Shown here: piece by piece, positions 10,812 through 42,177 of the stretch
Layout: each line of letters starts with the position of its first letter
Position numbering within the stretch: position 1 is the first letter of the stretch
Assembly: GCA_002841865.1 (NCBI GenBank)
Contig: PHBD01000001.1
Location: 151,001-215,000 of the forward strand
Reading direction: 5' to 3'
From: Deltaproteobacteria bacterium HGW-Deltaproteobacteria-19
Lineage (GTDB): Bacteria; Desulfobacterota; Syntrophia; Syntrophales; PHBD01
Length of the DNA: 64,000 nt
Position numbers and translations under genes: made by a program
Notes under the pieces: model-generated
What the model was told of the DNA's origin: nothing
The model's database searches: none
Seen by the model: only the letters and a program-made list of their open reading frames with translations

Positions 10812-10856
10812 GAAAGCCCGGCCATGAAGGGAACATGGTCCGGGCTTTCGCTTTTT
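10812..10856 (+). terminator. Intrinsic terminator-like hairpin
   Basis: GAAAGCCCGG-CCATG...CATGG-T-CCGGGCTTTC followed by GCTTTTT. Confidence 0.6.
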
Positions 10857-11942: not shown

Positions 11943-14522
11943 ATGAAAGACAAGTTTGAGATGCCAAGACGAAGATTTTTACAGATGACCGGTGCAATCG
12001 GGATCGCCACCGCGATGACGGCTTTTCCCTTCCGAAACCTGCAATCGGCATGGGCGTTCGGAGATCATCCGCAGGAACAGCTTCCCTACCGGATCACGAA
12101 GAAGGTCCCACAGGTCTGTGCAAGGGCCTGTGAAGCCGACTGCGCCTACTATGTCGTCATGGGCGTGGACCCGGCTACGGGCCTGGAGAGGGCCATCACA
12201 CTGGAAGGACGGCCGGAGGATCCCGTTTCAAACGGGAAATTCTGCATCAAGGGCATGGGGTTCGTCGATTCGCTGTACGATCCGGACCGCCTGATGGTCT
12301 CGCTGAAGCGGACCAATCCCGTCAAGGGAACGGACGTGGATCCGGGCTGGATCACCATGAAGACGGCAGACGCGGTGAACGAAGTCATCGCCGGCCTCAA
12401 GAAGCTGAAGCCAGAGGAGATTCTCTTCGCATCCCCCGGTGACCCCTATACGAACAGGCTCTGCCAGTCCATCGGGGCCACCCGGAGCGACCAGCGGACG
12501 GAATGCTTCGGTACCCATTACTACATCAACTGCCTGACGCTGACCAATCCGCCCAACAAGTTCTATTCCAGCTGCTATACCCCCAGCCATCACGTTTGCG
12601 GGTATGACTTCGACAAGTCAAAGTACCAGGTATGGTTCGGATTCGACTCTTTCTCCAAGTGCGGCAAGGCGGGTATGCTCAACCACTGGGCCGCTGGAAA
12701 GAGGAACGGCTGCAAGATCGTCATGTTCAACCCTGTCCGGACGCCTATGGCGGACGGTTATGCCAGCGAGACCTATGGCATCAAGCCGGGGACCGACCTT
12801 GCCGTGGCATTGGCCATGATCCGCACGATCCTGGCGGGCAAGAAGTACAATGCCTCTTTCGTAAAGAAGTACTCGGACGCAACCGCCCTGGTCGATGTGA
12901 ATGGGCGCGTCGCCCTGAAAACGGATGACGGGCAGTTTCTTGCCTGGTGCAGCAGGCACAGGAAGGCCGAGCCGATCGACGACTGCGATGCCCCGGTCCT
13001 TACAAGCGGTCCCTTCAAGGTGTCCATCGGTGGCAAAACGATTGTCGCCAAACCGGTCCTGCAGATCCTGACGGAGACGACCAGCACCTACACGTCCGAA
13101 TGGGCCGCCAGGATCAGCGGGGTGCCAGCCAAGGCGATCAGCAGGATTGCCCTGGAATTTGCAGCAGCCGCGCCCTACTCCATGGTCCCGACCTACAAGC
13201 GCGACGCCGCAGGACCCAACTATGCCAATAGCTGGCGTCTCCGCCACGCTATCAATATTCTCAACACCCTGTCCGGCTCGATCGACCACGAAGGCGGTAT
13301 TCTGCTCCTCCACGGCGTGAAGATCCCCTGGATCGACGAACTGGCTCCACCGGTGGTTCCCTATCCGGAGCAACCAGCCAAGTCCGTCGATTTTCGTGAT
13401 GAATTCCCGGTAACAAATGACATTTACCGGAAAAAGGATTTCTCCGCGCCGGGCCATTACGGAATGGTCGGCTGGGGTCTCTACAAGACGAACCGGGCCA
13501 AGGCGGTCTTCTTCCGGAATCCCCACCGGGGGCTCTTCGCCATGATTCAGCCGCAGATGCTGGAAAAGGCTGCGGACAAGATGCAGATGGTCGTCGACTG
13601 GAACCTCTACCTGGATGATCTTGGATACTTCTGCGACTACGTCATTCCGGCCCCGCACCAGTTCGAGGAGGGCAAGCTCGACCTGCGCCTCTACTACCCG
13701 AAGTATCCCTGCCTCGCCGGCGGCGTCCCGGTCCAGAAATCGCCCGGCGATCAGATCGGCTGGGGCGGATTCGCCGCCAAGATAGGCCTGGCCATGGCGC
13801 CAAAATATTGGACCACCGACGGGAGCAGCGATCCCAAAAAGCTGATCCCCACGAACATGGGCGATGTGGCTGTCAAAAATATGGGGGCTGCGGAGAATGC
13901 AGCCGATTTCAACAAGAAGGGGGCGTTCTGGATCGACAGGAAACCCTACGAAAACTACAAGCAGATCGAAGAGATCGGTTACGGACGGCCCAAGGGGAGG
14001 GTACGGATGTACATCGACGAATTCTCCCAGGTAGGTCATGAACCGCTGCCGGTCTGGGCAAAGCGATGGCATGATTCTACGGGGGATTACAAGTTTTCTC
14101 TCCTGATCACACGCGCCCCCTGGCACATGCACGCCGACCCGAACTTCATCAACAATCCCGTCATGAAGGAGATTACGGTCAGGAATCACATGGAATGCAT
14201 CTGGATGAACCCGGAGGCAGGCAGGAAACTGGGCCTGAAGGAAGGGGACATGGTGATCCTGGAAAACGATCCCAATTACATGAAGGATCTTCCCAGGCCG
14301 CAGAAGGCAAAGCTGCATCTGACAAATCGCGTTGTCCGGCAGGATTGCATCCTGACCTTCCACGGAATCGGCCACCGGGCAAAAAATCTTCGGCATGCCA
14401 AGGATTTCGGTTACCGGGATGGAGATCTGATTCCGCAGAAAGATCCCAACATCGTCAAGAAACACGATCCTACCGGGATGGGTTGGGTGGAAGACGTCTA
14501 TGTCAGCGTCAGAAAAGCATAA
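11943..14522 (+). CDS. Tat-exported molybdopterin (Mo/W-bisPGD) oxidoreductase catalytic subunit, Psr/Phs/Arr-like but divergent
   Basis: GAGGAGG RBS; twin-arginine signal PRRRFLQ...AWA; N-terminal Fe-S motif CARACEADC...CIKG; DPDRL..; IKPGTDLAVALAMI; likely Cys ligand in QRTECFG; VVDWNLYLDD...DYVIP; C-terminal molydop-binding region (WMNPEAGRKLGLKEGD.V). Confidence 0.9.
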   Translation: MKDKFEMPRRRFLQMTGAIGIATAMTAFPFRNLQSAWAFGDHPQEQLPYRITKKVPQVCARACEADCAYYVVMGVDPATGLERAITLEGRPEDPVSNGKFCIKGMGFVDSLYDPDRLMVSLKRTNPVKGTDVDPGWITMKTADAVNEVIAGLKKLKPEEILFASPGDPYTNRLCQSIGATRSDQRTECFGTHYYINCLTLTNPPNKFYSSCYTPSHHVCGYDFDKSKYQVWFGFDSFSKCGKAGMLNHWAAGKRNGCKIVMFNPVRTPMADGYASETYGIKPGTDLAVALAMIRTILAGKKYNASFVKKYSDATALVDVNGRVALKTDDGQFLAWCSRHRKAEPIDDCDAPVLTSGPFKVSIGGKTIVAKPVLQILTETTSTYTSEWAARISGVPAKAISRIALEFAAAAPYSMVPTYKRDAAGPNYANSWRLRHAINILNTLSGSIDHEGGILLLHGVKIPWIDELAPPVVPYPEQPAKSVDFRDEFPVTNDIYRKKDFSAPGHYGMVGWGLYKTNRAKAVFFRNPHRGLFAMIQPQMLEKAADKMQMVVDWNLYLDDLGYFCDYVIPAPHQFEEGKLDLRLYYPKYPCLAGGVPVQKSPGDQIGWGGFAAKIGLAMAPKYWTTDGSSDPKKLIPTNMGDVAVKNMGAAENAADFNKKGAFWIDRKPYENYKQIEEIGYGRPKGRVRMYIDEFSQVGHEPLPVWAKRWHDSTGDYKFSLLITRAPWHMHADPNFINNPVMKEITVRNHMECIWMNPEAGRKLGLKEGDMVILENDPNYMKDLPRPQKAKLHLTNRVVRQDCILTFHGIGHRAKNLRHAKDFGYRDGDLIPQKDPNIVKKHDPTGMGWVEDVYVSVRKA

Positions 14523-14531
14523 GCGAGGTGA

Positions 14532-15245
14532 ATGACGATGAAAGAATATGCGATCCTGCTCGACAATACGTTCTGCACCGGCTGCAACAGTTGCGCATAC
14601 CGGTGTATCCAGGAGTTCCGATATCACGACCAGGCGTCGAAGGGTCTTTTCAGGACCTTCGTTTCGATCAACGACGGCGGTCTCTACCAGAAACGGTGCA
14701 TGCACTGTATCGACCCGCAGTGCGTCAAGAACTGTCCGGTCAAGGCCCTGACCAAGTCGGATTATGGACCGGTTCTCTACGATGCGAAGGTCTGCATCGG
14801 CTGCCAGACCTGCGTCCGGGTCTGCCCGTTCCATGTCCCGCTGTTCGATGAAATGACGAAGAAAATCGTCAAGTGCAGTCTCTGCGCCCAGCGGCTGGGC
14901 AGCGGGAAGCAGCCGGCCTGTGTTGAAGTCTGTCCGACCGGGGCGTTGCAGTTCGGCGAATACGGGGCGATGAAGACCCTGGCTTTGAAACGGGCCAAAG
15001 AAAAGAAACTCAAACTGTACGGCTACGACGAGAGCGGCGGGACTCATGTATTCGTCCTCGCCAAGGAAGATCCCGTGGCGGCCGGCTATCCGAAAGTACA
15101 GAAGAAGGCGCTGAAAGGCGGGAGGGCTTCCCTGGACGGAGGCCTCGGCGTGCCCGCCGTGGCGGTGCTGGCCGTGACCGGCATGAAAAAGTTCAGCGAG
15201 CGGCGCGCCCGCATCGAGGCGGAAACGAGAAAAGAAAAATCCTGA
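14532..15245 (+). CDS. 4x[4Fe-4S] electron-transfer subunit (FdnH/HybA/DmsB-like) with hydrophobic C-tail
   Basis: CTGCNSCAYRC, CMHCIDPQCVKNCP, CIGCQTCVRVCP, CSLC...PACVEVCP; C-terminal LGVPAVAVLAVTG followed by basic residues. Confidence 0.92.
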   Translation: MTMKEYAILLDNTFCTGCNSCAYRCIQEFRYHDQASKGLFRTFVSINDGGLYQKRCMHCIDPQCVKNCPVKALTKSDYGPVLYDAKVCIGCQTCVRVCPFHVPLFDEMTKKIVKCSLCAQRLGSGKQPACVEVCPTGALQFGEYGAMKTLALKRAKEKKLKLYGYDESGGTHVFVLAKEDPVAAGYPKVQKKALKGGRASLDGGLGVPAVAVLAVTGMKKFSERRARIEAETRKEKS

Positions 15246-28873: not shown

Positions 28874-29128
28874 ATGAAAAAAGCCGGTTCGAAGAAGTCG
28901 GCCAAGGGTACCGAAAGTCTGGTTTCCATCAAGACGGTTGACGGATCCTTGCTGCGGGGAAAGATCAACCTGGGTGATGAAAAGAGGGTATCCGACATTT
29001 TTGCCAAGTCGAAGAATCCGTTTATCGTCCTGTACGATGTCACGACCCAGAGTGCAGAGAGCAAGGTCATGATCATCAATAAGGAACACATCGTCTGGGC
29101 CGAACCGGAAGAGGATGCCGCCGGCTGA
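28874..29128 (+). CDS. Small beta-rich (Sm-like, DUF6812-type) protein
   Basis: AGGAGG RBS; I.TVDGS.LRGKINL....RVSD.F.....PFIVL.DV......KVMIINKEHIVW.EP pattern. Confidence 0.7.
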   Translation: MKKAGSKKSAKGTESLVSIKTVDGSLLRGKINLGDEKRVSDIFAKSKNPFIVLYDVTTQSAESKVMIINKEHIVWAEPEEDAAG

Positions 29129-29214
29129 GTATGATACCCGAAAGGCGACCTGTAAAATGGCTGCCAATGATTCCAAGGGAAGCACCGACAAACAAGCAGG
29201 GAAGGGGAGAAGGG

Positions 29215-30210
29215 ATGCCTGACCAGGATGTCTACATGGAACTGTCGAAGAAGGTCGGAGCGGAACACTCCAGTATTGTTCCCCGGATCTGGGAAGCTGT
29301 CTGCTCGCAGGATGAGGCCCGACTGATCAATTCCTTGCCGGCAACGGCGGAGGAACTGGCGCGACAGTTTGATAAATCCCGGAATGAAATGGAAAACATC
29401 CTCCAGTTTCTCTTCCGGAAGGGACTTGTTTTTGAAGCGATCAAAGATGGGCGGGCGATCTATCGAATGCCGCGACACATCATCCAGTTCCACGATGCCT
29501 CGACCCTCTGGCCGGACGCGTCGATCGAACTTCTCGATCTCTGGCGTCGCTATACGGAGGAAGAATATCCGCAGGTGCCGGTCCTTCTGAAGGCAATTCA
29601 GGCGCCTCCATTCTTCAGGGTGATTCCCATCAATGAGAAAATCGAACCGGAGAGCCAGGTCCTCGCCTATGAGGATGCCAGCCGGATCGTCGAAAACGCC
29701 GCCGTCCTCGCCGTTACAAAATGTCCCTGCCGGATGATCATGCGCAAATGTGATAAACCGCTGGAGGTTTGCCTCCAGATGAACCGGGGAGCTGAATATG
29801 CCATCAAGCGGGGAACGGGTCGACAAGTCGACGTCGAGGAGGCAAAAGCCATTCTCCGCAGTGCAGAAGAGGCCGGGCTGGTTCACCTGACCGAAAACAA
29901 GGCCGGCATTGGAACGGTGATCTGCAACTGCTGCCAGTGCTGCTGCGTAGGTCTTCCCTATGCCCGCAAGGCGGAGACGAACGGCCTGCTGGTTCCCAGC
30001 AGGTATCGGGCCGTTGTCGAGGCGTCATCCTGCACAGGATGCGGGATCTGTGTGGATGACTGTCCCATGGGGGCCATATCACTGGATGCAGGAGACGTGG
30101 CAAGCGTGAACGCCGACACCTGCATCGGATGCGGCGTCTGCAGCCATTCCTGTCCGCCCGGGGCGATCCACTTGACGGTTGCGCGAGGCCGGGACTTCAT
30201 CCCGGCGTAG
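29215..30210 (+). CDS. 4Fe-4S binding protein with N-terminal HTH-like region and Cys-rich middle domain
   Basis: KCPCR...CDKPLEVC, ICNCCQCCC, C-terminal CTGCGICVDDCP and CIGCGVCSHSCP. Confidence 0.88.
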   Translation: MPDQDVYMELSKKVGAEHSSIVPRIWEAVCSQDEARLINSLPATAEELARQFDKSRNEMENILQFLFRKGLVFEAIKDGRAIYRMPRHIIQFHDASTLWPDASIELLDLWRRYTEEEYPQVPVLLKAIQAPPFFRVIPINEKIEPESQVLAYEDASRIVENAAVLAVTKCPCRMIMRKCDKPLEVCLQMNRGAEYAIKRGTGRQVDVEEAKAILRSAEEAGLVHLTENKAGIGTVICNCCQCCCVGLPYARKAETNGLLVPSRYRAVVEASSCTGCGICVDDCPMGAISLDAGDVASVNADTCIGCGVCSHSCPPGAIHLTVARGRDFIPA

Positions 30211-30217
30211 CCTCCGG

Positions 30218-31009
30218 ATGAAAAAAATCCTCGTCCAGATCTACGAAATTCAGGAACCCCAGGAAGCAGCACCACTTATTGAACTGGGTGTTGATCACAT
30301 CGGCGGAGTGATCCTGTTTCGCGATCAGTGGCGAATGCCACTTCTCCGGGAGTCCATCGAACTGATCAACCAGTCTTCATCGGCGAGCACACTGATTCCG
30401 CTGCTCATGGAAACCGATGGAATTCTCCAGGCTATCGCATATTACAATCCCAGACTGGTCCATTTCTGCGACGATATTCCCCTTCAGGATGGGAACCACA
30501 CAGAGAAAGCATGCGAAAGGATCATCCGGCTTCACGAGCGTGTCCACCGTGAATTCCCCGCCATCAGGGTCATTCGATCCATACCTGTTCCGGAGGCCCA
30601 TCTGCCGGGTGTCGATGAGGCCGGACGCGCAGTCCTTCGGATTGCCTCCCTGCTTGAGGATTCGTGTGATTTCTTCATGACCGACACACTTATGGGCTGG
30701 ACAACCGGTGAATCCTCAAGCCCACAGCCCGTGGAAGGATTCGTCGGAATCACGGGGAGGTGCTGCCACTGGGGAATCGCCTCCGCTCTTTGCCGGCAGG
30801 CTCGAATCCCGGTGATCCTTGCCGGAGGCATTTCGCCGGACAATGTCCGGGAGGCTCTTCTGGCCGTCCGTCCGGCAGGAGTGGACAGTTGTACGCTGAC
30901 CAACATCACGGACCACAAGGGCTTGCCTGTTCGCTTCCGGAAGGATCCCGCCAGGGTCCGCCGGCTCCTCGATGAGGTTCGGCTCATAGAGGCCGACTCC
31001 GATTCCTGA
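30218..31009 (+). CDS. Phosphoribosylanthranilate isomerase-like (TrpF-like) TIM barrel
   Basis: GVDHIG, FFMTDT, GITG, PVILAGGISPDNV..AL..VRPAGVDSCT; lacks the usual N-terminal KICG. Confidence 0.7.
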   Translation: MKKILVQIYEIQEPQEAAPLIELGVDHIGGVILFRDQWRMPLLRESIELINQSSSASTLIPLLMETDGILQAIAYYNPRLVHFCDDIPLQDGNHTEKACERIIRLHERVHREFPAIRVIRSIPVPEAHLPGVDEAGRAVLRIASLLEDSCDFFMTDTLMGWTTGESSSPQPVEGFVGITGRCCHWGIASALCRQARIPVILAGGISPDNVREALLAVRPAGVDSCTLTNITDHKGLPVRFRKDPARVRRLLDEVRLIEADSDS

Positions 31010-31242
31010 TGCGTCAACTGGAAAATCCTTGTACTTTGCTCTCTCTTCAGTCCCTGATCCGCATTCAAGTCCATTGAGTCATACATCTTTGCTCTTTCCT
31101 GTCCTGCATGCCATGCATCAGCAGGCCTAATCCCCTTGCAAACCAGCGTCACGTCGGATATCTTACGGGGCCTTCGATGAGACGGCCGATTCTTATAGCC
31201 CGGGTCGTCGCATGGAAGATGCATCCTCAGGGAGGTCGTTCG

Positions 31243-31767
31243 ATGCAGGAGAGGGAAGGGGTCAGACAGCTTCCGAAAATGGAAAACCACTTGTGTTTCG
31301 GCTGTGGACCAGCCAATGAACACGGGTTGAATATGCAGTTTTATGGCAATGGTGCGTCCATCATGTCCTGGGTCACAGTGCCCGGGCATCTGTGCGGATG
31401 GAACAATCTGGTTCACGGTGGAATCATCTCCACACTCCTCGATGAGATCATGAGCAGTTCTGTGGTTTACGTTCTCCAGGCCATGGGGATGACCCGTTCG
31501 ATGTCCCTCGATTTTATCCAGCCCGTTTACGCAGGCCGGGAGATAAAAGTTCAAAGCAGGATCCTGGAAGTTAAAAACGGGCGCGAGGCTACCGTTGAAG
31601 GAATTCTGAGTAATGAAAACGGCGAGATATGCGCAAAATCCACGGGAACGTACATCCTGTTTTCCCCGGAAAAGATCCGTAAGATGGGAATCATCACGGA
31701 TGATGTGGTGGGATGGTTCGAACACTTCATTCAGGGGAGGGAAGTCTCCGGACAAGGGGCAGCTTGA
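31243..31767 (+). CDS. PaaI family (hotdog) thioesterase
   Basis: CFGCG..N..GL...F, CGWNNLVHGGIISTLLDE; GGAGG RBS before ATG 31243. Confidence 0.9.
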   Translation: MQEREGVRQLPKMENHLCFGCGPANEHGLNMQFYGNGASIMSWVTVPGHLCGWNNLVHGGIISTLLDEIMSSSVVYVLQAMGMTRSMSLDFIQPVYAGREIKVQSRILEVKNGREATVEGILSNENGEICAKSTGTYILFSPEKIRKMGIITDDVVGWFEHFIQGREVSGQGAA

Positions 31768-31835
31768 GCGGAGATCCCATTTGAATCCGTATGAAATCAA
31801 ATCTCGATCATATACCAGAAGGAAGCGGACGACCC

Positions 31836-32663
31836 GTGAATACGAAGACTGTAACCATCGCCGTTCTTCTGCTTTCGATTGCAACCATTCTTCTCTGCGT
31901 GTTTTTCCTGCATCAAGGCTCCGGTCGTCTCGAAGCGGCTCCGTCAGGCAAGGTGTTCTGCGACCGGATGGTGTGGCAGGAGTTTGGGAAGAGGGGCTCC
32001 CAGATAACAATCTGGAAGCAGCGCGGGTATGATGTCTTCTTTTTCGAAACCGGCATGACTATTGACGCGGACGGATCTCCGCACGCATACCATCCGTCAA
32101 ACATAGGAATCGATGATAATGAAAACGGCAAGGACGAGCAGGGCAACTGGGTTGGGATCGTTCTGGCAAACAAGAAACCTTACATCCAGAATTCAACGGA
32201 TCCGGCCCCTGGGTACTACGTTTCCGCCACCAGCCTTTACGACATGACAAAGAGACGCACCGACCCGAGAAGATATGTTGATTCTGAGAAAATACCCTAT
32301 ATCGCGTTGCCTCGCCAGGTTATGCATCCGGACGGTCGCTGCCAGCGAGACGCCAAGGCCTGCCTGGGCGACATTACGATTGTCCGCAATATCGAGAACG
32401 GCCGGTATGCCTTCGCCATCCTTGCGGATCAGGCGCCATCCTCCGGTATCGGAGAAGGATCGATCGCCCTCGCCACGGCGCTCGGCATAGACCCCGATGC
32501 ACGCATCGGCGGAGCCAAAGAGGGAATCCAATACCTGATCTTTCCCGGAACAGGTGATGAAAAGCCCAAGTCAATCGAGCAGATCAACGACATGGGAAAG
32601 AAAATTCTGGAGCGATGGGGCGGCATGGGAAAACTGGATGCCTGTTTTGCCGATCAATCCTGA
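31836..32663 (+). CDS. Glycoside hydrolase family 75 (chitosanase-like) with N-terminal signal/anchor
   Basis: MTIDADGSPHAY, VDSEKIPYIALP, LGD...V, AILADQAP..GIGEGSIALA.ALGI, IQYLIFPG; hydrophobic N-terminus; GTG start 31836. Confidence 0.8.
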   Translation: MNTKTVTIAVLLLSIATILLCVFFLHQGSGRLEAAPSGKVFCDRMVWQEFGKRGSQITIWKQRGYDVFFFETGMTIDADGSPHAYHPSNIGIDDNENGKDEQGNWVGIVLANKKPYIQNSTDPAPGYYVSATSLYDMTKRRTDPRRYVDSEKIPYIALPRQVMHPDGRCQRDAKACLGDITIVRNIENGRYAFAILADQAPSSGIGEGSIALATALGIDPDARIGGAKEGIQYLIFPGTGDEKPKSIEQINDMGKKILERWGGMGKLDACFADQS

Positions 32664-32712
32664 CGATCTCTCATCCCCCCAGAAAGATCCCGCATAATCC
32701 CCATCCATTCCG

Positions 32713-35700
32713 TTACTTTATGCCCGTCAACACCTGCCGGAAGCTCTTTTTCAGGGCATCATACGCCGGCTTCATGTAGGGCCTCACCTGCATCTCATTC
32801 CAGTCCGTCCACGTGAACGCAGGCAATGTGGAGTCGATCCTGTTATTTCCGGAACGCGGAAGGCTTTCCTGGAAACGAAGCCCCGTCCCGGCAACGGACA
32901 GGTGCAGGGCAGCGATCCCGATACCGCCTCCCCGGGTGAAGACGGGTTCCGACTGACCGTCCGTCCCCCCATAGAAGAGGTGCGTGGAGGGGTCAGCCAC
33001 GTAGAGCATTCCCCAGGGAATCCGGACCTCGATCATTGTGCCCGTTGAGTCCACATGCCAGGCGGCCAGGGTCGAAGAGCCCGGTGCCGCGGGATCCGCC
33101 GTCCCTGCTGGCAATTCGCTCCGGTTGACGAAGACGGGTGGGAAGATACTTCCGTCTCTCCCCCAGCGCGGCGGGTTCGCCTGCGTCATCATCGATTCAA
33201 ATGAGGATCTATCCCGGACTCTCAGTTTGATGTCCTTCTTGCGTACAATGAGACGCCCCCCCGGCACGGAATCCTTTATCCAATGGTTGGGATTGAAGCC
33301 CTCAGCAATGAGCAGGGTGGCACGATCCGGGTGATCGAACTTCAGGAGAAATGTGGCCCCGTCCGCGATGCGGGGTGCCGGCTTCGGCAGTTCCCGGCTT
33401 CCCGCCCGGCCCGGCAGAGTGCTCAAGACCACCCAGAAGGCGTCCTTCTTCCAGTCGATCGCCGGGCTGTTTCTGTCCAGATCGATGCGGAGATAAAAAT
33501 AGGCGTAGTCCGACATGGCGCGGACTCCCCGAATCCGTCCCTCCCGGTTGGATGGTGCGGCCGAAATTGTGACCGCTTTTTCCCAGTCTTTTTCACTTCC
33601 CCTTAACAAAGGTACGGTATAAGCTGGACGATATCCAACAATGCCGAAGTTTTCTTCCGGATTGAGCATGTTCTGCCAGAACGTGCGCCGCTCCGGAGGC
33701 TGATCGAAAGGCCGTGTATAATTGTCGGCCACGGATTTCCACCATTCATCCAGCCAGGCAAAGACGATCCCGCCGGCACATCCCGAGTCCTTAATGTTTC
33801 GCGTCATGCGCTCCAGCAGGTCGGCCTGCGCTTTTTCGCTGAATCCGCCGTTGTGCCAGCCATCGGGATGAACATGGGCGACCCCCCAACTGCTCGGCAC
33901 GCCGTACTCTGCAATCAGGAGAGGCATGCCGCGATGGTGCTTTTTGAGGTCGAGGAGATATCCGTAATACCGGTTCGAACCGAGATCATCGCTGACTTTC
34001 GGATATTCCTTGTCGTACATGAGGAAGTCAGGCCAGTATGTGTAAACATGGAAGGCGGCGAATAGACCGGCGGGATAGGCCGACGTGGTGGTCAACTTCA
34101 TCACGTCCAGCGACACGGCATCGCTGTCATTCATTTCCTTGGTCGCCTTCTCTGTATGCATTCCGCGCATCGTCATTTCCTCGGCGTAGTTTGCCTCGGT
34201 GACATGGCTCATGGGATCCAGGGGGGGCCAGTTCACGATGGTCATCGGCCTCTGTGCATTGTACCGATCCATTTCGTAAGACGCGACATAATCGATCGTG
34301 TTGGCAAACCATACCTCGCTCGGATTTCCGTTTTTCACTTCGACATAGCGGCCTTTGTATGAGGTTTTGTCCGGATGAAGACGATTGGTCGTCAGGACGA
34401 TGGAGGTTTCCACTTCGCGTCCCGGACCGATGGCGAAGACATACGGGGAGACGTCTGCGGTGTAGACGCCAGCGGCATGGCCCGGGCGGTAAGGGATTAC
34501 CGCATTTCCGTGAAGCAGGTCGACGATGCGACGGGCCTCCTCAAGAAATTCTTCCCGCCATTGGCTGTTGTAAAGATCCAGCATATCTTCCTTTTCACTC
34601 AGCCAGACCTCCTGGAAGAGCCACAGTGGACGGGAAGCCTTTTCGTTGTAGATTTTCAGGGCCGTGTAAAAGGCCGGCGGCAGGATCGTGTAGGCCCGGA
34701 TCATGTTCGATTCCATCGCCGCTATCTGGTCAAACCAGGTTAAGTACGCGGCGACATCCCTGGGGGCCGTCGAGGGGTATTCACCGGGAGCGGCCGGACC
34801 GATGTTTACGCCCACCAGGTAGGCGCGCTGCCAGCCCTTCCCGTTGAAATACTCGAAGTAATCTCCTTTTGTGCGATAGAGAAACTGCATATTGGCGGGC
34901 CTTGCCCTTGTGAGTGGCGACGGTTTCTGCCACCACTGGACCTCGTCCGGCCGGACGCCATAGATTCTCGATAGTTGCAGCTTGGCCATATCGGCGCCGA
35001 TCCCTCTTTCAATCATCAGGCGATATACATCCGAGGCACCCGTTAGATTCCCAAGCCGGTAATGGCAATCTGCAAGGGATGACAGAACCGTCTCGTTCAT
35101 CTTACCGTCGAAAACGATCTTCTTGAGCAACGTCCGAGCCGCATCCCACTCCCCTTTCCGGTATGTGTCGATAGCGATTCGAATCGGATCTTCAGGCGGC
35201 CGTTCTTCGGTCAGTTCCAGGCGTCGCATGACGGCGAGGGCCAATTCATTGGCCTTATCCTTCTTCAAAACGGTTTCAGCCGCCTGTTTCGCCCCCGTTC
35301 TGTCACCGGTCTGCTCCAATGCCATGGCGAGGCCGGCGAAGCAGTCAAGATTCGTCCTGCCGTATTCCAGCCCGGTCCTGAAAGATTTTATCGCGTCTGC
35401 GGGAGTTCCGCGGCGGAGCTGCACATATCCGAGGCCGCAGTTTGCATCTGCCTGTTTCGCCTTGAGGCCAATGCTGCGCCGAAACGCCGTCTCCGCTGCA
35501 TCCGGTTCGTTCAAGCGCATGTAGGCCCATCCCTGGATTGCCGAAAGCCCGGCATCTTTCATGGCTTTGGGGGTCGACAGAAGAGTCACCGCCTGCTGGG
35601 GCTGTCCCTTCCTCATCAGGAGTAATGCTCGATCAGAAAGGCTTTCCGCAGAATACACGGAGGGTGTGAACACAAGGATCATGAGGACTGAAATCACGAC

Positions 35701-35730
35701 TAACGAGGCCAGACGCGGCAGTCTGTTCAT
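32713..35730 (-). CDS. Periplasmic TPR + putative glycoside hydrolase (clan GH-A-like TIM barrel) protein
   Basis: GGAG RBS at ATG 35730; signal peptide; several TPRs; GVNIG...G.YP, NMIRAYTILPPAFY.AL..YN, GREVE (acid/base-like), PLLIAEYGVPSS (nucleophile-like), GGIVFAWLDEWWK. Confidence 0.75.
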   Translation of the reverse strand: MNRLPRLASLVVISVLMILVFTPSVYSAESLSDRALLLMRKGQPQQAVTLLSTPKAMKDAGLSAIQGWAYMRLNEPDAAETAFRRSIGLKAKQADANCGLGYVQLRRGTPADAIKSFRTGLEYGRTNLDCFAGLAMALEQTGDRTGAKQAAETVLKKDKANELALAVMRRLELTEERPPEDPIRIAIDTYRKGEWDAARTLLKKIVFDGKMNETVLSSLADCHYRLGNLTGASDVYRLMIERGIGADMAKLQLSRIYGVRPDEVQWWQKPSPLTRARPANMQFLYRTKGDYFEYFNGKGWQRAYLVGVNIGPAAPGEYPSTAPRDVAAYLTWFDQIAAMESNMIRAYTILPPAFYTALKIYNEKASRPLWLFQEVWLSEKEDMLDLYNSQWREEFLEEARRIVDLLHGNAVIPYRPGHAAGVYTADVSPYVFAIGPGREVETSIVLTTNRLHPDKTSYKGRYVEVKNGNPSEVWFANTIDYVASYEMDRYNAQRPMTIVNWPPLDPMSHVTEANYAEEMTMRGMHTEKATKEMNDSDAVSLDVMKLTTTSAYPAGLFAAFHVYTYWPDFLMYDKEYPKVSDDLGSNRYYGYLLDLKKHHRGMPLLIAEYGVPSSWGVAHVHPDGWHNGGFSEKAQADLLERMTRNIKDSGCAGGIVFAWLDEWWKSVADNYTRPFDQPPERRTFWQNMLNPEENFGIVGYRPAYTVPLLRGSEKDWEKAVTISAAPSNREGRIRGVRAMSDYAYFYLRIDLDRNSPAIDWKKDAFWVVLSTLPGRAGSRELPKPAPRIADGATFLLKFDHPDRATLLIAEGFNPNHWIKDSVPGGRLIVRKKDIKLRVRDRSSFESMMTQANPPRWGRDGSIFPPVFVNRSELPAGTADPAAPGSSTLAAWHVDSTGTMIEVRIPWGMLYVADPSTHLFYGGTDGQSEPVFTRGGGIGIAALHLSVAGTGLRFQESLPRSGNNRIDSTLPAFTWTDWNEMQVRPYMKPAYDALKKSFRQVLTGIK

Positions 35731-35762
35731 TATTATCTCCAATATCTTTGATTTCATTATAT

Positions 35763-36683
35763 TTACTTGCGGGTGGGATAGTGGTTGATGACGGCATTCC
35801 CGGCCGGAGCAGATCCAGCCATCGGGGACACGTCCGTAAGATTTCTCGTGAGAAGCTGTCCGAACTGCTCTACGGAGAACTGTCCATAAACCGGGTACCT
35901 GCGGATTTTCATGGGACTCATGCCGGGCATGTTCAGTCCCTGATCCGTGGTCACCGTCGTAATGTATCCAGAATCTCTGGCGATGGCCAGTAATTCGTCA
36001 TTATACCAGCCGCTTGGCCAGGAATAATGAACAACCGGGCGTTGGAGTTTTTCTTCCATTACCTTTTTCGCCCCTGCAATTTCGGCCACGACATCCTTCC
36101 GTGAGCGATTCGGAGTCTTCCCCGCGAGCCACGAAATGAGATGATTCCCCGGAATCCATGGGTGTGTGCTTGAATGGCATCCGAAATCAAAGTCCTGGTG
36201 GGATGCAATCTCTGCCAGCTCGGGCCAGGTCAGGAAAGCCGGATAGGAACCGTCGATGTACTCCAGCACGATGAAGAAGGTCGCTTTAAACTTGTATTTT
36301 TTCAGAATCGGTACAGCGTTCTGAACGCTCTTCCATCCGTCATCAAATGTGAGAACGACCGATTTTTCGGGTAGCGATATTCTTCTTTCCATATATGCTT
36401 TAAGATCGTACAGGTCGACGGTCGTATAACCGTTATCCTTTAAGTATTTCATCTGCTCTTCAAAACGGGCGAGATGAGTCAGCGTATGGTCCGGTGTTTC
36501 CGTCGGGTTGTTGGAAATCTTGTGATACATGAGGACAGAGACATTGGCGGGCGTTATGGTCTGGCCGGCTGGAAGATCCTTATCTGCGCACCACCCTTGA
36601 GATATGAAAAGAAAAAGGAAGGCTACAGAATAAATGAAACCACCCCTCTTTTTCCAGTTGCAATCTTTCAAATTTTTGTTCAT
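35763..36683 (-). CDS. Secreted polysaccharide deacetylase (CE4, IcaB/PgaB-like NodB domain)
   Basis: Signal peptide; VLMYHKI, VVLTFDDG, GCHSSTH, YSWPSG motifs. Confidence 0.92.
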   Translation of the reverse strand: MNKNLKDCNWKKRGGFIYSVAFLFLFISQGWCADKDLPAGQTITPANVSVLMYHKISNNPTETPDHTLTHLARFEEQMKYLKDNGYTTVDLYDLKAYMERRISLPEKSVVLTFDDGWKSVQNAVPILKKYKFKATFFIVLEYIDGSYPAFLTWPELAEIASHQDFDFGCHSSTHPWIPGNHLISWLAGKTPNRSRKDVVAEIAGAKKVMEEKLQRPVVHYSWPSGWYNDELLAIARDSGYITTVTTDQGLNMPGMSPMKIRRYPVYGQFSVEQFGQLLTRNLTDVSPMAGSAPAGNAVINHYPTRK

Positions 36684-37176
36684 ATTTAGGCCCCATTCTA
36701 TTATGTTTTTTATCTGCGAACAGAAAACACTTCATTAGGATGTGTTTACCATCCGGGGGTCGTTTTGTCGAGATGAATTGTTTGCAGTGGCCGCAAGGGT
36801 AAATCAAACACATCCGAAATTGACTAGATGTCGTCTCAGCCGACAGGTTGAGTTTTGTTCGCCTGGATCGACAGGAACGGATCGAAATTCTCTTACCAAC
36901 GGCAAGATTCGAAAGAGATCGGATCGATATTTTTTTGCCGGGCATTCCAGCCTGGGCTTCAGAAGCGTGTTCAAGCCCGACGATGTTCTTTCAGGAATGA
37001 AATACCGGATCGTGCAACACTTGGCTTGTAAGAACTGCGAAATTTTTCTGTAAGCTCTTGCGGTGGCGTAACGATTAGATCCTACAACGTTATTTCTTTA
37101 TGCGGTGTGCTGGTTTAGAGGGCAAATATGCGGCGGATTGTTTCTGGAGGACACCAACGAATTATTTAAAAATAGT

Positions 37177-37205
37177 TAGACAAAAGAATCAAAGAGTTGT
37201 ATAGA
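37177..37205 (+). promoter_or_regulatory. Candidate sigma70 promoter for the HEAT-GT2-TPR operon
   Basis: TAGACA-N17-TATAGA, 35 nt upstream of ATG 37240. Confidence 0.55.
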
Positions 37206-37239
37206 ACGCAGTCAAAATCGAAGAGAGGCGGAAGATGAT

Positions 37240-38505
37240 ATGAGTGATTTGCGGTTGATCCTGATCGTCTCTATTTTGTTAGTGTTTTCTTTCGTTCTTG
37301 GCTTTATTCTTGCTTCAGTTTTCCGAAGATACAGGAACGAACGACGTTATTCTCAAATCGACCAACTCAGGGATCGGTTTCGTTCCAAATTGGCGCAAAT
37401 CGACTCAATCACGGCGATAGACCGATTCTCCGTGAGTCAGTGGCAGTCAGCAGTTCGCAAAGGTTCTGTTGAATGGGTCGCTCTTGAAGATGTCATCTTC
37501 GAATTCGCCGAGCGAAAGGGTCAAAAGGCCTTTGCTAGACGTCTTTTTGCCGCGCTCGGTTATACAAAGCATTATCAGGGTCAGTTGTCTCTCCGTTCCG
37601 CCATTGATTTATCGGTAGCGGCCGATAAACTGGGACGGATAGGAGATCCCTCCTCCATGGAAGCCCTGAGCAAACTTCTGGATCATCCCAAATCTGAAGT
37701 ATCCACGGTTGCCTTCCGGGCTCTCTGTCGCATCGGGAAAAGAGATTCCCTCCACCGATTGCTGAATGCGCTCCCAAGATTGATGAAAAATGAGAACATA
37801 TCATCAAAAACGATCCAGACATCCCTTCTCCTCTTTGAACCTTGGGCCAGTGCAACCATCATAGAGTATGCGGGCAAAACAGCGGACCCTAAGATTCTCG
37901 CCCTGCTTGTCGAGACGCTGATCGGTTTTCCTGCACACAAAGAAATGTTCGATCTGGCTATCACCTTGGTTTCTCACTCGGATCCTGAAGTTCGGGGGAA
38001 AGCCCTCCGTCTCCTGGCCCGCGAAGATAATGTATCTTTTTCCTGCGACCCGGCCATCCTTCAGCCCCTTCTCTCGGATCCGGTGTGGTTTGTCCGTCTT
38101 CAGGCTGCAAAGACAATCGGCAGGATAAAGTGTGATAATTTCATGGCAATGCTGAAAAAATTCGCACTTGACGAGAAATGGCAGGTGCGTGATTCCGCAG
38201 CCTTCGCCCTCTCCGAACTTGGCGAGTCTTCCATTGATACCTTCCTCGAACTCATGGAGACACCGGACAAATATGCAAAGGAAAGCATCTGCGAAGAAAT
38301 TCAGCGAAGCGGGTATGTGCTTGGACTCATCGATTATCTTGGAGATCGTGAAAGCGATAGAAAAACAAAGGCTAAACGGATTCTCCAATTGATGCATCAA
38401 CTTGGTTTTTCGGCGCCGCTTCGCGATGCCGTGGAAGCCAATACCAGTTCTCCCCAAGTTCGCTCTGAAATCCAAAGTATCCTGAATGCTGGCGGTGCCC
38501 AATGA
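37240..38505 (+). CDS. HEAT-repeat protein with N-terminal transmembrane helix
   Basis: TM segment LILIVSILLVFSFVLGFILASVF; repeats such as AADKLGRIG, LLDHP..EV...AFRAL, DPEVRGKALRLL, DPVWFVRLQAAKTIG, DEKWQVRDSAAFAL; ATGA overlap with GT2. Confidence 0.88.
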   Translation: MSDLRLILIVSILLVFSFVLGFILASVFRRYRNERRYSQIDQLRDRFRSKLAQIDSITAIDRFSVSQWQSAVRKGSVEWVALEDVIFEFAERKGQKAFARRLFAALGYTKHYQGQLSLRSAIDLSVAADKLGRIGDPSSMEALSKLLDHPKSEVSTVAFRALCRIGKRDSLHRLLNALPRLMKNENISSKTIQTSLLLFEPWASATIIEYAGKTADPKILALLVETLIGFPAHKEMFDLAITLVSHSDPEVRGKALRLLAREDNVSFSCDPAILQPLLSDPVWFVRLQAAKTIGRIKCDNFMAMLKKFALDEKWQVRDSAAFALSELGESSIDTFLELMETPDKYAKESICEEIQRSGYVLGLIDYLGDRESDRKTKAKRILQLMHQLGFSAPLRDAVEANTSSPQVRSEIQSILNAGGAQ

Positions 38506-39932
38506 AAGCGATCCTTTATTCCATCGTTATCGGCTTCAACTACTTCGTCGGTTTCTACTTCGGGTTGGTCAACGCAGTTTATTCCATCCTCCTGGCCATA
38601 GCCCTGGTTGTTATCCTCCGGCATGTCCGCCGAATCCGTTATGCTCCCTTCCGGGATCTCGAAAATCGCTCGGAGATGCCTCCTGTCGCGATTCTGATCC
38701 CTGCCAGAAACGAGCGCAACGTGATTATCCGCACAGTCGAGTCCGTTCGGGCACTCATTTATCCCTGGACGGAAATAGTCGTTATCAACGACGGGTCCAC
38801 GGATGATATGCTGCAAACTCTGATCTCTCACTATAATCTGCGCAGGATTGACCCTCTATACAGGGACATCATCAAGACCAGACCGGTCAAAGGGTTTTAT
38901 TATACCAGCCAGATTCCGAACCTGATCGTCATCGACAAGGAGAATGGAGGCAAGTCGGATGCCCTCAATTGCGGAATCAACGTCTGCAAGAGTCCGTACA
39001 TCTGTACTCTTGATGCAGACTCCGTTTTTGAGCCGGAATCGCTGATTCGACTGGTTACACCGCTTATTCAGAGTACGGTTCCTGTCATCGCCTCCGGCGG
39101 CGTTGTCCGCGTGCTCAACGGTGTAAAGCGTGAAAAAGGGGTTGTAAAATCGATTGAACTTCCTCGATCAAGCTCCCTCGCAATTTTTCAGATTGTCGAA
39201 TATTTGCGAAGTTTCCTCTTCGGCCGGGTCGGCCTGGATGCTTTGAACTGCAATCTGATCCTGTCGGGTGCTTTTTCGCTGTTTCAAAAGGCTGCGGTCA
39301 TCACGGTCGGCGGTTTTCGACTGGGAAACGTGACAGAGGATATGGAATTGGTCATCCGCCTCCACAAGCATTACAGTCTCAAAGGAGATCCCTACGTTAT
39401 CCGCTTCGTTTCCGATCCAATCTGCTGGACGGAGGTTCCCGAAACCCTGAAAATGCTTGGCCGTCAGCGACGTAGATGGCATCTGGGAATGATTCAGAGC
39501 ATCTGGGAACACAAGACGACGATTTTCAACCCAAGATACGGCAGGCTTGGAATGTTCGCGATGCCCTACAATGTTTTTATTGAAATGGTCAGTCCCATCA
39601 TCGAGTTCCTGGGATACATCATTGTCATCATGTCATATATCCTTGGCATGATCGATTATGATTTCTTTATGCTGTTCCTGTTTCTGGCTATCGGTTACGG
39701 GATTTTTCTGTCCACGACCGGCATTTTTCTCGAAGAGCTGACATACCGCCGCTATCCTAAATGGAGTGACCTCTTTGTCATGCTTGCCTACGGGGCATTG
39801 GAGAATTTCGGTTATCGACAGATCAATTCATTCTGGCGATTCTCAGCCTTCTTCCAATTTATCTTTGGCCGGGGTAAATGGGAAACTGTGCGGCATAAAG
39901 GAGAAAAGAAACCTGCCTCAGCGGCGGCTTGA
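38502..39932 (+). CDS. Processive GT2 polysaccharide synthase (PgaC/IcaA-like)
   Basis: N-terminal TM; IPARNE, VINDGSTD, NGGKSDALN, DADS, VTEDMEL, QRRRW (D,D,D,QxxRW); C-terminal TM helices. Confidence 0.92.
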   Translation: MKAILYSIVIGFNYFVGFYFGLVNAVYSILLAIALVVILRHVRRIRYAPFRDLENRSEMPPVAILIPARNERNVIIRTVESVRALIYPWTEIVVINDGSTDDMLQTLISHYNLRRIDPLYRDIIKTRPVKGFYYTSQIPNLIVIDKENGGKSDALNCGINVCKSPYICTLDADSVFEPESLIRLVTPLIQSTVPVIASGGVVRVLNGVKREKGVVKSIELPRSSSLAIFQIVEYLRSFLFGRVGLDALNCNLILSGAFSLFQKAAVITVGGFRLGNVTEDMELVIRLHKHYSLKGDPYVIRFVSDPICWTEVPETLKMLGRQRRRWHLGMIQSIWEHKTTIFNPRYGRLGMFAMPYNVFIEMVSPIIEFLGYIIVIMSYILGMIDYDFFMLFLFLAIGYGIFLSTTGIFLEELTYRRYPKWSDLFVMLAYGALENFGYRQINSFWRFSAFFQFIFGRGKWETVRHKGEKKPASAAA

Positions 39933-40002: not shown

Positions 40003-42177
40003 ATGAAGAAAGTTTCTTTGTTTCTGCTTGTGAGTTTTCTCTGTTGTGTAACAATTGCCTTTGCGGCCGATGCAATCGATGATTTCAATAAACGCCTTGC
40101 CGCCGCGAAAGACAATGTGGAAAAGGCAACTGTACTAAAAGAGATGGGAGATTATTACACAGCAGAGGGGCAACACGAAAAGGCCGCGGACACTTATCTC
40201 AAGGCGTTGCCTGAACTTCGGGACAGGCTGCCGGAAGATCAGTTGACGGATGTGGCAATCGGTCTTTCCTGGGGGGGGAAACTGGAGGCATCTTCCACGG
40301 AATTGCGATCCATCCTGAAGCGAAATCCAAAAAACACAAAAGCGAGAGCACACCTCGCGAAAGTCCTCCTCTGGTCTGAAAAACCGGATGAAGCTCTGGC
40401 AGAAGCCAATGCCGCGCTTGCCATACAAGCCAATGATCGGGATGCTATTCTGGTAAAGGCAGAAGTCCTTCGGATCAAGGACGAGTTGGACGCCGCAATC
40501 TCTATTTATAACGAGCTTCTGAAAGGTGGTGAAGATTTCGACACAAGTCTTGGGCTGGCTTGGGCTTACTTTCAGAAGGGTGATGTTTCCGCATCGCAAA
40601 AAACGATTCCGACTGCAAAGCCTGTCTATCCCTACCAGGAACAGGAACTCAAGAATCTGAACGGTGAAATTCAAAAAGTTCTCGATTCCAGACAGGCGGC
40701 CGTCGCTGCCGTTGGTCCCGAGGCTGATAAGTTGAAGACGGAAGGGGATGTGCTCTCAGAAGCCGAGAAGTACCCGGCCGCCGCGGAGAAATACGTTAAG
40801 GCGCTGGATCTCTCCCGTGGTTTCCCGGTTGCATCCCGCGTGGAGATGGCGACAGTCATGGCCTGGGCTGGAATGCACAAGAGATCCGCCAAGGAATTGG
40901 AAGACGTCATCGCCAAAGATCCATCAAATATGGAAGCGCGTGTCCAATTAACCCAGGTGCTTCTCTGGCAGGGCGAGTTTGATGCGTCCATTCGGCAGGC
41001 CGACATCGTTCTGGCCAAAGATCCAAACAACCGTGAAGCCAACCTTTCGAAGGCGAACGCTCTCCGTTCAAAGGGTTTTTTCCGCAAGGCAGACCAGTAT
41101 TACAAAGCCCTTCTTGCAAAATCGGACGACTTTGATGTTCGCACCGGCCAGACATACGGCTTCCTGGCAAGTGGAAACAAGACCGCTACCGATGATAGCC
41201 TGGCACGCATAAAACCACGAAACAGTGCAGAGGAAAAAGAGCTTTCCGATCTCCGTGCCGAGCGCTTCTGGGAGATGCGTCCCAGGCTCTATGCGGGCAC
41301 CAACTTCTATTATGACAACGACGACAACCGAGTAACGACCCTTTACGGTGGAACCCAGTTCTGGCTCGGCAATTTCAAGACAAACATCGATTACTCCCGA
41401 CTGAGACTGCAAGGGGAAGGTACGGGATTCGACGATAATGGCAATGCAATTGCTCTCGCTACCGGCAAAGAGACCGATTTTGTCCAGCTCTCGACCTATT
41501 CCAGGATGCCTTGGTATGGCGGACTCGGTGGTGGAGTAGGGCTTTCGGACGGCAAGTTCTTCACCTGGCACGGGAAAGCCGATGTGGAAGTGCTTTGGGG
41601 ATCCGCCGGCGTCTATGTTGCAAATGAAACCTTCAACTACCTTACAGACCTCGTCGACAACAACATCAGGGCCATGACCTATCAGGCATGGCTCAACCAG
41701 CGCCCCACAGACCGCATCACCATACTGGGCAGTTTCACTCATCGCGAATATTCGGACAGCAATGGTCAGAATGACACACAGGCGAGCATTGCCTACCTGC
41801 TTTTGAGAAGGCCGTCCGTTTCCGTTGGTTACCAATTCCGCCACATGGATTTCCGCCGTCAGAGCGGAGGCGGCTACTTTGATCCTGATGATTACCAGGC
41901 ACATTCCATCTTTGTGGGTTTCGGCTATTACGAACTGCCGTTTTACATGAACGTCACACCATATGCCGGTTACCAGGATTTCAGTCGCAATGATGAGCAC
42001 TTCAGCGGCATTTTCGGAGGTGTTACCGGCCTTGTTGGATATCGATTCGGTAACCGGGTGGCTGTTGAAGCGACCGGTGAGTGGGGCAATTCGCCCGCCG
42101 GTGGCGGGTCGTCGGCCGGAGCCGGAACCGGGTGGTATTACTGGGTCGGAGGCTTGAGGGTCATCTTTGTTCTCTAG
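40003..42177 (+). CDS. TPR-containing outer-membrane beta-barrel, putative polysaccharide export protein (PgaA/BcsC-like architecture)
   Basis: Signal peptide; about 400 aa of TPRs; C-terminal about 300 aa of alternating aromatic/Gly beta-strands ending WYYWVGGLRVIFVL. Confidence 0.8.
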   Translation: MKKVSLFLLVSFLCCVTIAFAADAIDDFNKRLAAAKDNVEKATVLKEMGDYYTAEGQHEKAADTYLKALPELRDRLPEDQLTDVAIGLSWGGKLEASSTELRSILKRNPKNTKARAHLAKVLLWSEKPDEALAEANAALAIQANDRDAILVKAEVLRIKDELDAAISIYNELLKGGEDFDTSLGLAWAYFQKGDVSASQKTIPTAKPVYPYQEQELKNLNGEIQKVLDSRQAAVAAVGPEADKLKTEGDVLSEAEKYPAAAEKYVKALDLSRGFPVASRVEMATVMAWAGMHKRSAKELEDVIAKDPSNMEARVQLTQVLLWQGEFDASIRQADIVLAKDPNNREANLSKANALRSKGFFRKADQYYKALLAKSDDFDVRTGQTYGFLASGNKTATDDSLARIKPRNSAEEKELSDLRAERFWEMRPRLYAGTNFYYDNDDNRVTTLYGGTQFWLGNFKTNIDYSRLRLQGEGTGFDDNGNAIALATGKETDFVQLSTYSRMPWYGGLGGGVGLSDGKFFTWHGKADVEVLWGSAGVYVANETFNYLTDLVDNNIRAMTYQAWLNQRPTDRITILGSFTHREYSDSNGQNDTQASIAYLLLRRPSVSVGYQFRHMDFRRQSGGGYFDPDDYQAHSIFVGFGYYELPFYMNVTPYAGYQDFSRNDEHFSGIFGGVTGLVGYRFGNRVAVEATGEWGNSPAGGGSSAGAGTGWYYWVGGLRVIFVL

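Follow-up and report, generated by a model that had tools for sequence, protein, structure and literature searches.

Why does an uncultured anaerobic member of the Syntrophaceae carry a well-preserved enzyme of a chitosanase family beside the genes for an exopolysaccharide (EPS) synthase and a polysaccharide deacetylase? The question is raised by a stretch of 64,000 nucleotides from Deltaproteobacteria bacterium HGW-Deltaproteobacteria-19 (assembly GCA_002841865.1, contig PHBD01000001.1, positions 151,001 to 215,000 of the forward strand; hereafter the window, to which coordinates refer unless another locus is named), in which one gene encodes a protein of glycoside hydrolase family 75 (GH75). 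The enzyme class can be given with high confidence, since homology and a modelled fold both indicate an intact GH75 active site. The role can be proposed only tentatively: the enzyme may trim the polymer that the neighbouring genes make and export.

Family, active site and predicted export of the GH75 protein

The Pfam model PF07335 matches the protein with 32.7 bits against a cut-off of 27 (E 1.1e-7) over model positions 36-138 of 165, a partial coverage explained by a model built mostly on fungal sequences; no NCBIfam model matched. In a phmmer search of the Protein Data Bank (PDB), residues 72-284 align with chain residues 13-219 of V-Csn (E 2.7e-36, 128.7 bits), and besides V-Csn no entry was found with E < 1. 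V-Csn is a proven endo-chitosanase of a soil virus, with solved structures 7TVL-7TVP (PMC9485262). Moreover, an AlphaFold model of the protein, built with 23 homologues (predicted local distance difference test, pLDDT, 88.9), superposes on these structures in Foldseek with E 4.6e-24 and a target-normalised template modelling score of 0.85-0.89; the next matches are the double-psi beta-barrel proteins kiwellin, barwin and MltA, all with E > 5e-3. The model predicts a two-domain fold with a double-psi beta-barrel core. A preliminary description of this DNA had proposed a GH75 homologue, and both the Pfam and the V-Csn matches, which lie well outside what chance would give, confirm it; the lack of any GH75 match, named there as one possible refutation, did not occur. 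The features of the gene are as follows.

31791..32663, plus strand: GH75 glycoside hydrolase gene, 290 amino acids, supported by the open reading frame (ORF), the PF07335 and V-Csn matches, the model and the ratio of nonsynonymous to synonymous substitution rates (dN/dS)
31851..31907, plus strand: N-terminal hydrophobic segment, residues 21-39, with a mean Kyte-Doolittle value of 2.87 over 19 residues
32064..32078, plus strand: DADGS motif, residues 92-96; D92 and D94 correspond to D34 and D36 of V-Csn, and G95 is invariant
32322..32366, plus strand: clade-specific loop insertion of nine residues with C184 and C191, after the IPYIALP strand and opposite a gap in the V-Csn alignment
32427..32456, plus strand: D213-x8-E222, corresponding to D148 and E157 of V-Csn, with G221 invariant and the codons checked

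The three motifs on which the preliminary description relied were all located in a single reading frame: DADGS, IPYIALP (residues 168-174, window 32292-32312) and the AD-x8-E segment ADQAPSSGIGEGS (residues 212-224, window 32424-32462), in which eight residues separate D213 from E222. D92, D94, G95, D213, G221 and E222 are invariant in the 23 homologues (alignment A1), and these residues, four of them acidic and two of them glycines, are the six positions described as universally conserved in GH75 (PMC9485262). The sugar contacts are preserved as well, A146/T147 corresponding to A90/T91 of V-Csn and D108/N112 to D50/N54. In V-Csn, E157 is the proposed proton donor and D36 the proposed catalytic base (Wu et al. 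2022, PMC9485262); D148 and D36 together hold the -2 subsite sugar by its free amine, the D148N mutation lowers activity five-fold and E157Q almost abolishes it (PMC9485262). The Asp...Glu pair of the Aspergillus fumigatus enzyme, D160/E169, has the identical x8 spacing (PMC9485262). The active site is intact, as had been claimed. By the V-Csn structures, however, the AD-x8-E pair combines a substrate-orienting Asp with the general acid Glu, and the role of base is proposed for the second Asp of DADGS.

On homology and the model, then, the protein is very probably an intact GH75 enzyme, and by its likeness to V-Csn it would be an inverting endo-hydrolase. Since D94 and D213 would hold the free amine of the -2 glucosamine (GlcN), only a hexosamine polymer that is de-N-acetylated can serve as substrate. 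The enzyme is well preserved and in no way unusual for its family, for which a structure has been solved, and a confident annotation is possible. With V-Csn it shares, besides the residues named above, the homology of the catalytic region, the two-domain fold and 35-36% identity in the structural alignment. It differs in about 50 additional N-terminal residues that form a hydrophobic export segment, in the nine-residue two-cysteine loop after IPYIALP, and in its setting, a chromosomal gene of an anaerobic Syntrophaceae by a polysaccharide locus, whereas V-Csn is carried on a phage.

The loop, where the pLDDT of the model is lower, is missing from V-Csn and from most homologues; within alignment A1 only P0004, P0005, P0007, P0010 and P0016 share it. 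The insertion is confined to the GH75 subclade of the window protein, Pannus brasiliensis included. Four cysteines lie outside the N-terminal hydrophobic segment, and C184 and C191 together with C57 and C285 suggest two disulfides.

The N-terminal hydrophobic segment, also pointed out in the preliminary description, was found at residues 21-39, and residues 18-41 are helical in the model. It may be either a signal anchor or a long signal peptide, with a possible cleavage site between LEA and A at residues 47-50; the N-termini of GH75 homologues are likewise hydrophobic or of lipobox type. The protein is predicted to be exported by this segment and, anchored or free, is probably periplasmic. 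The longest ORF begins at ATG 31791, and an in-frame GTG at 31836, the start taken in the preliminary description, has the better-placed AGGAAG upstream at 10-nucleotide (nt) spacing; either may be the true start. The gene is under purifying selection, with a dN/dS of 0.14-0.18 against four orthologues at a dS near saturation. A scan of 29000-37400 for promoters and terminators found about as many as in shuffled sequence, and none in the 49-nt gap that follows the gene.

The polysaccharide locus around the gene

Genes for a Fer4 protein, a PRAI-like protein, a 4HBT thioesterase and GH75 follow one another on the plus strand; the next two genes, for a hydrolase with tetratricopeptide repeats (TPR) and a CE4 deacetylase, lie on the minus strand, and HEAT, GT2 and TPR genes follow on the plus strand.

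31108..31767, plus strand: thioesterase gene (Pfam 4HBT), ending 24 nt before the GH75 gene; left border of the variable cassette
32713..35757, minus strand: 1014-amino-acid protein with TPR (matches to TPR families), a clan GH-A-like hydrolase and a beta-rich domain (the TPR-hydrolase), convergent with the GH75 gene across a 49-nt gap
35763..36683, minus strand: CE4 polysaccharide deacetylase of PgaB/IcaB type (PF01522, 85.9 bits; PDB matches include IcaB and PgaB)
37240..38505, plus strand: membrane-anchored HEAT-repeat protein (HEAT_2, 77.6 bits), the end of its gene overlapping the GT2 start
38502..39932, plus strand: processive GT2 synthase, PgaC/IcaA-like and chitin-synthase-like (PF00535, PF13641; Chitin_synth_2, 32.7 bits)
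40003..42177, plus strand: 724-amino-acid TPR protein (TPR families), kept 3' of the GT2 gene in the genomes G085, G074 and G062

The HEAT gene is paired with the GT2 gene in every related locus examined, and the 724-amino-acid TPR protein is presumed to be an export component. The GT2 protein reaches 112.6 bits with TIGR03937, far under the cut-off of 422, and phmmer against the PDB returned generic GT2 matches only, with no indication of linkage; the CE4 protein scores 99 bits with the PgaB model TIGR03938, also under the model cut-off. The preliminary description had called the synthase "GlcNAc-type" (GlcNAc, N-acetylglucosamine). The GT2 is indeed PgaC/IcaA-like, but the label is uncertain, given a GH157-like hydrolase in the locus and a GH16 enzyme in that of a congener.

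For the hydrolase part of the 1014-amino-acid protein, a model of residues 271-1014 (pLDDT 91) finds as its nearest PDB structures the GH157 endo-beta-1,3-glucanase of Labilibaculum antarcticum (9G5G, 9FZ9, 9G4N; Foldseek E 2.6e-12), with GH2 enzymes following by a small margin. The sole PDB match by phmmer is again GH157 (E 0.12), the only Pfam match of this part is GH113 (E 0.024), and a PDB profile search with the TPR-hydrolase alignment was dominated by TPR proteins; a literature search on structure 9FZ9 found nothing relevant. Homologues with 36-67% identity occur in Terriglobales, Elusimicrobia, Chlamydiae and Merismopedia. In other taxa (L217 2191-11000; L219 876-8975; the contig of P0126), GGDEF, response-regulator and PilZ genes flank the HEAT-GT2-TPR-hydrolase system and suggest control by cyclic diguanylate; in one case the flanking genes are MBOAT and AlgX/DHHW-like ones, which suggest an O-acetylated polymer.

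The layout around GH75 is constant in all recovered members of the lineage (L001-L006, L085, L204), over a GH75 identity to the window protein of 72-76% in L005 and L006 and down to 62% in L204. The conserved layout alone says little, since the entire neighbourhood is syntenic. Of more weight is that the four GH75-bearing genomes of the host order are exactly the four with an orthologous 1014-amino-acid hydrolase. In the congener G085 the GT2 is 93% identical, and the stretch bordered by the same two genes, thioesterase and HEAT, holds a different cassette, in which genes for an 806-amino-acid TPR-hydrolase (32% identical), for a further CE4 and for GH16 run in one direction.

L182 (G085:C1:186000-203000), 5672-15085, all on one strand: thioesterase, TPR-hydrolase, CE4, GH16, HEAT, GT2, TPR protein

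Different cassettes between the same border genes indicate that GH75 sits inside a variable modification cassette. The GH16 protein of G085 is a lipoprotein with an intact EIDIME motif and a laminarinase match of E 8e-65, and GH16 of this type is found in 2 of the 151 genomes of the order, a rarity like that of GH75.

The thioesterase also precedes the cassette in G085 and L204. Its 219-amino-acid ORF is probably called too long, as orthologues have 166-174 amino acids and similarity begins at about residue 41. The closeness of this gene to GH75 leads to a different explanation, namely that GH75 is part of, or a neutral passenger in, the upstream Fer4/PRAI-like/thioesterase unit and has no link to any polysaccharide. 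It lies on the same strand as that unit, 24-35 nt past the thioesterase in the window and in L204, and the order Fer4, PRAI-like, thioesterase, GH75 is conserved. Nevertheless, the upstream neighbours are cytoplasmic redox and thioesterase proteins with no conceivable sugar substrate, their genes occur without GH75 in G085, G016 and G055, and in L001, which has no thioesterase, GH75 stands alone past a gap of 310 nt. The purifying selection reported above also speaks against a neutral passenger, and we regard this explanation as very unlikely.

Distribution of GH75 and recurrence of its neighbours

The preliminary description held GH75 to be best known from fungi and actinobacteria, a picture that the searches do not support. 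A word-based search gave 1,563 homologues, several of them titled "glycoside hydrolase family 75 protein" at NCBI, and an exhaustive search of 1.84 billion cluster representatives gave 1,771 at E <= 1e-3 and 317 at E <= 1e-30. At 50% identity there are about 1,800 GH75 clusters, mostly from soil Acidobacteriota, plus phages. The best genome and metagenome loci (887 confirmed by tblastn, 160 of them kept) are likewise overwhelmingly from Acidobacteriota, with some from cyanobacteria, Bacteroidota and others, and sixteen lie on viral contigs. In the host order GH75 occurs in 4 of 151 genomes, all of one genus (4 of 7 there), and in the host phylum in 5 of 401; in the GH75 tree the sequences that come closest from outside the lineage belong to a metagenome contig (L086) and to the cyanobacterium Pannus (L007). 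This sporadic distribution and the outside relatives suggest horizontal acquisition, so that in the host lineage GH75 is probably a rare, acquired gene.

Linkage to a deacetylase and a synthase is also found elsewhere. A total of 188 GH75-bearing loci were scanned by tblastn and with hidden Markov models made from the CE4 and GT2 sequences collected here, and the combination of CE4 with a strong GT2 match was confined to two clades, the Syntrophaceae lineage and one cyanobacterial clade. In the latter (Calothrix NIES-4105, Calothrix HK-06, Scytonematopsis contorta and a metagenome-assembled genome labelled Acetobacteraceae), GH75 lies about 360-460 bp upstream, on the same strand, of a fusion gene whose product, of 1,127-1,163 amino acids, has the order transmembrane-GH18-CE4-transmembrane-GT2 and the GH18 motif NIDFE.

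L064 9812-14412 (also L069, L039, L052), same strand: cyanobacterial GH75 gene and fusion gene

Judging from its domains, the fusion is an uncharacterised synthase and modifier in one protein, with a chitosanase partner. The window locus and the cyanobacterial one have in common GH75, a TIM-barrel hydrolase, CE4 and a PgaC/chitin-synthase-like GT2 (28-30% identical to that of the window), as well as an exported GH75, whose N-terminus in Calothrix NIES-4105 (L064) is like that of twin-arginine translocation substrates. They differ in that the cyanobacterial genes are adjacent on one strand, the modification domains are fused to the synthase and there are no HEAT or TPR partners; moreover, the cyanobacterial GH75 forms a separate clade with a longer Asp-to-Glu spacing. 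The two linked clades stand apart in the GH75 tree, each with unlinked sisters behind well-supported branches, and the remaining cyanobacterial GH75s examined have no GH18-CE4-GT2 fusion. Two independent adjacencies to CE4 and GT2 would arise by chance, on a rough estimate that is not a computed statistic, with a probability of a few per cent. The linkage is thus recurrent but facultative, and the core of the system does not include GH75.

Transfer of GH75 and the CE4/TPR-hydrolase pair as one cassette was considered and rejected: the pair's closest relatives from outside (P0125, P0126) come without GH75, and the closest GH75s from outside (L086, L007, P0007, P0010) come without the pair.

The same survey brings in peptidoglycan as a possible substrate. 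Viral GH75 genes (L224 2845-4564; L230 2240-4543; IMG/VR contigs) encode no signal peptides, and in L224 and L230 they are preceded by genes for small proteins of two kinds, membrane proteins and lipoproteins, and for one with a match to an Rz-like spanin (E 1e-4), a setting that looks like a lysis cassette; the "chitosanases" that phages encode within GH75 may thus have an endolysin function and not be auxiliary metabolic genes. Neither the window protein nor the viral GH75s have a PHROGs family. In addition, among the proteins P0326, P0287 and P0256 the GH75 domain is C-terminal in those of 1,405 and 1,124 amino acids and near the N-terminus in that of 1,852 amino acids; the C-terminal placement in giant proteins is the architecture expected of polymorphic toxin tips. 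Among the small genes 3' of acidobacterial GH75s, an immunity-like partner was sought and rejected, one cluster being a cytoplasmic CPC-motif protein and another consisting of opposite-strand ORFs.

On this explanation the window enzyme would cut beta-1,4 bonds in peptidoglycan strands that contain de-N-acetylated GlcN, either when its own cell remodels the wall, around the export machine for instance, or in an attack on neighbouring cells. The fold is common to MltA, barwin and expansin-type proteins that act on walls, and the adjoining CE4 could generate the GlcN; the lysis-like viral setting and the domains that terminate proteins of 1,100-1,400 amino acids are in line with it. However, the window gene has no holin, spanin, RHS/toxin carrier or immunity-like neighbour, the closest characterised relative acts on chitosan, the literature found shows no GH75 activity on peptidoglycan, and the CE4 belongs to a polysaccharide system that many taxa have without GH75. 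We therefore consider a peptidoglycan substrate improbable for the window enzyme, although such a role is conceivable for the family.

A further explanation is that the enzyme is a stand-alone chitosanase for foreign glucosamine polymers, such as the chitosan of fungal walls and necromass or the deacetylated matrix of other microbes, acquired horizontally and parked by the locus; the GH16 laminarinase of G085 would then be its counterpart against the other main polymer of fungal walls. Nearly all GH75 homologues are stand-alone exported enzymes in varied contexts (peptidase S9, amino-acid permeases), V-Csn is a proven chitosanase, the sporadic occurrence of the gene in order and phylum fits such an acquisition, and the gene stands outside the EPS operons. 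Moreover, a chitosanase and a beta-1,3-glucanase in one slot next to a shared synthase fit foreign substrates better than a shared polymer.

With the GH75 enzymes of Aspergillus fumigatus, Fusarium solani and Streptomyces avermitilis (PMC9485262) the window protein shares the Pfam family and, with the first of them, the x8 Asp...Glu spacing, but it is distant from them (the 32.7 bits given above); saprotrophs secrete those enzymes to feed on chitosan or to attack it. Other evidence argues against foreign substrates. In the window host, nagA, nagB and GH20 were not detected. The search for these three covered the whole genome, which is 100% complete by marker genes, and matched in control genomes; non-canonical routes were not searched. 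The products could not enter the canonical amino-sugar pathway, and feeding on chitosan is downgraded accordingly. There is no transporter gene nearby either, and the observation in the preliminary description that sugar transporters and GlcN catabolic genes are missing from the neighbourhood holds. Furthermore, a Sec-exported protein of a diderm without dedicated secretion would stay in the periplasm, out of reach of polymeric chitosan, and two rare hydrolases in the same 5-kb EPS slot, with a cyanobacterial recurrence, would be unlikely if the position were meaningless. All considered, action on foreign polymers appears doubtful.

A proposed role in trimming the cell's own polymer

The role that we put forward is that of an accessory hydrolase whose substrate is the polymer of the neighbouring system; it is a serious possibility, still held tentatively. 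This context hypothesis is new, plausible and unproven, and is drawn from the gene neighbourhood. The sequence of events would be as follows. The HEAT-GT2 synthase would extrude the chain, the CE4 would strip some of its acetyl groups and the TPR proteins would export the polymer. The GH75 enzyme would enter the periplasm by its N-terminal segment and bind the partly de-N-acetylated chain, D94 and D213 holding the free amine two sugars before the scissile bond. Cleavage would proceed by inversion, with E222 as the acid that protonates the glycosidic oxygen and D94 as the base that activates water. By cutting deacetylated stretches, GH75 would provide a lineage-specific accessory step of trimming or release beside the locus's own TPR-hydrolase.

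The preliminary description had already inferred processing of the cell's own polymer. What supports it is the linkage throughout the lineage, the recurrence with CE4 and GT2 in cyanobacteria, the amino-sugar genes not found and the predicted export of the protein; against it stand the position outside an operon and the lack of GH75 in eight of eight other loci of the system. As for the polymer, the GT2 is nearest to PgaC/IcaA and the CE4 to PgaB/IcaB, and GH75 requires free amines; together these affinities indicate a GlcNAc/GlcN polymer.

The arrangement has parallels. PelA, BcsZ, PslG and Ega3 are dedicated hydrolases of synthase-dependent polysaccharide systems, and fungal galactosaminogalactan has two hydrolases, Sph3 and the deacetylation-dependent Ega3, an arrangement that the proposed pair of GH75 and TPR-hydrolase resembles. 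The C-terminal GH153 domain of PgaB is also the dedicated hydrolase of such a system and cuts where the polymer is deacetylated (PMC5933820). Like these enzymes, GH75 would cut its own polymer internally in the periplasm or outside the cell, with GT2, CE4 and TPR genes adjoining, and as in PgaB-GH153 and Ega3 the cutting would be limited to deacetylated polymer. Unlike them, it belongs to an unrelated fold and family, lies outside the operon and is not conserved with the system, whose locus has its own TPR-fused hydrolase. Of the marks of a dedicated hydrolase, linkage in the lineage and independent recurrence were found; a shared operon and co-occurrence across taxa were not.

Several observations weigh against the proposed role. 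First, GH75 converges on the CE4/TPR-hydrolase pair and runs in the direction of the Fer4, PRAI-like and thioesterase genes, starting 24-35 nt past the end of the last, which places it outside any EPS transcription unit. Second, the system does without it: none of eight other HEAT-GT2-TPR-hydrolase loci carries GH75 (G074, G062, G073; the contigs of P0125, P0126, P0127, P0128 and P0130), the CE4/TPR-hydrolase pair that comes closest from outside the lineage (67% identity) lacks a neighbouring GH75, and G085, with its 93%-identical GT2, holds a GH16 laminarinase homologue in the slot of GH75. Third, GH75 does without the system: about 180 other GH75 loci have no CE4 or GT2 nearby, and five GH75-carrying acidobacterial genomes lack the TPR-hydrolase. 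Finally, the chemistry is not uniform. The TPR-hydrolase is closest to GH157 beta-1,3-glucanases, so that the polymer may contain no glucosamine; to our knowledge GH75 acts on beta-1,4 chitosan only, and the PgaC/PgaB-like genes suggest beta-1,6 linkage. Accessory hydrolases whose textbook specificities do not agree are thus found with one synthase: either the polymer has a mixed composition, or one or more of the small hydrolases do not have it as substrate.

A bolder version of the proposed role would have the HEAT-GT2/CE4/TPR system make a chitin-like beta-1,4 GlcNAc chain, partly deacetylated in the periplasm to a chitosan-like EPS, with GH75 recruited twice independently, in Syntrophaceae and in heterocystous cyanobacteria, as a deacetylation-dependent hydrolase for sizing or release. 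We think this unlikely to be correct in full. If it were true, it would be the first physiological self-directed role of a GH75 enzyme and evidence of a bacterial chitosan-type matrix polymer; a literature search on GH75 with biofilm, EPS or poly-N-acetylglucosamine found no paper making the link.

The context is worth keeping, as two unrelated lineages place GH75 beside a synthase and a deacetylase. Should the polymer of the locus not be the substrate, the case would be a warning that adjacency to an EPS locus is weak evidence, the congener having a laminarinase at the same place. If GH75 does cut the cell's own polymer, it would gain its first self-directed role, would add a further case of deacetylation-dependent trimming of a matrix and would constrain the linkage of the polysaccharide made by the uncharacterised, widespread HEAT-GT2 system.

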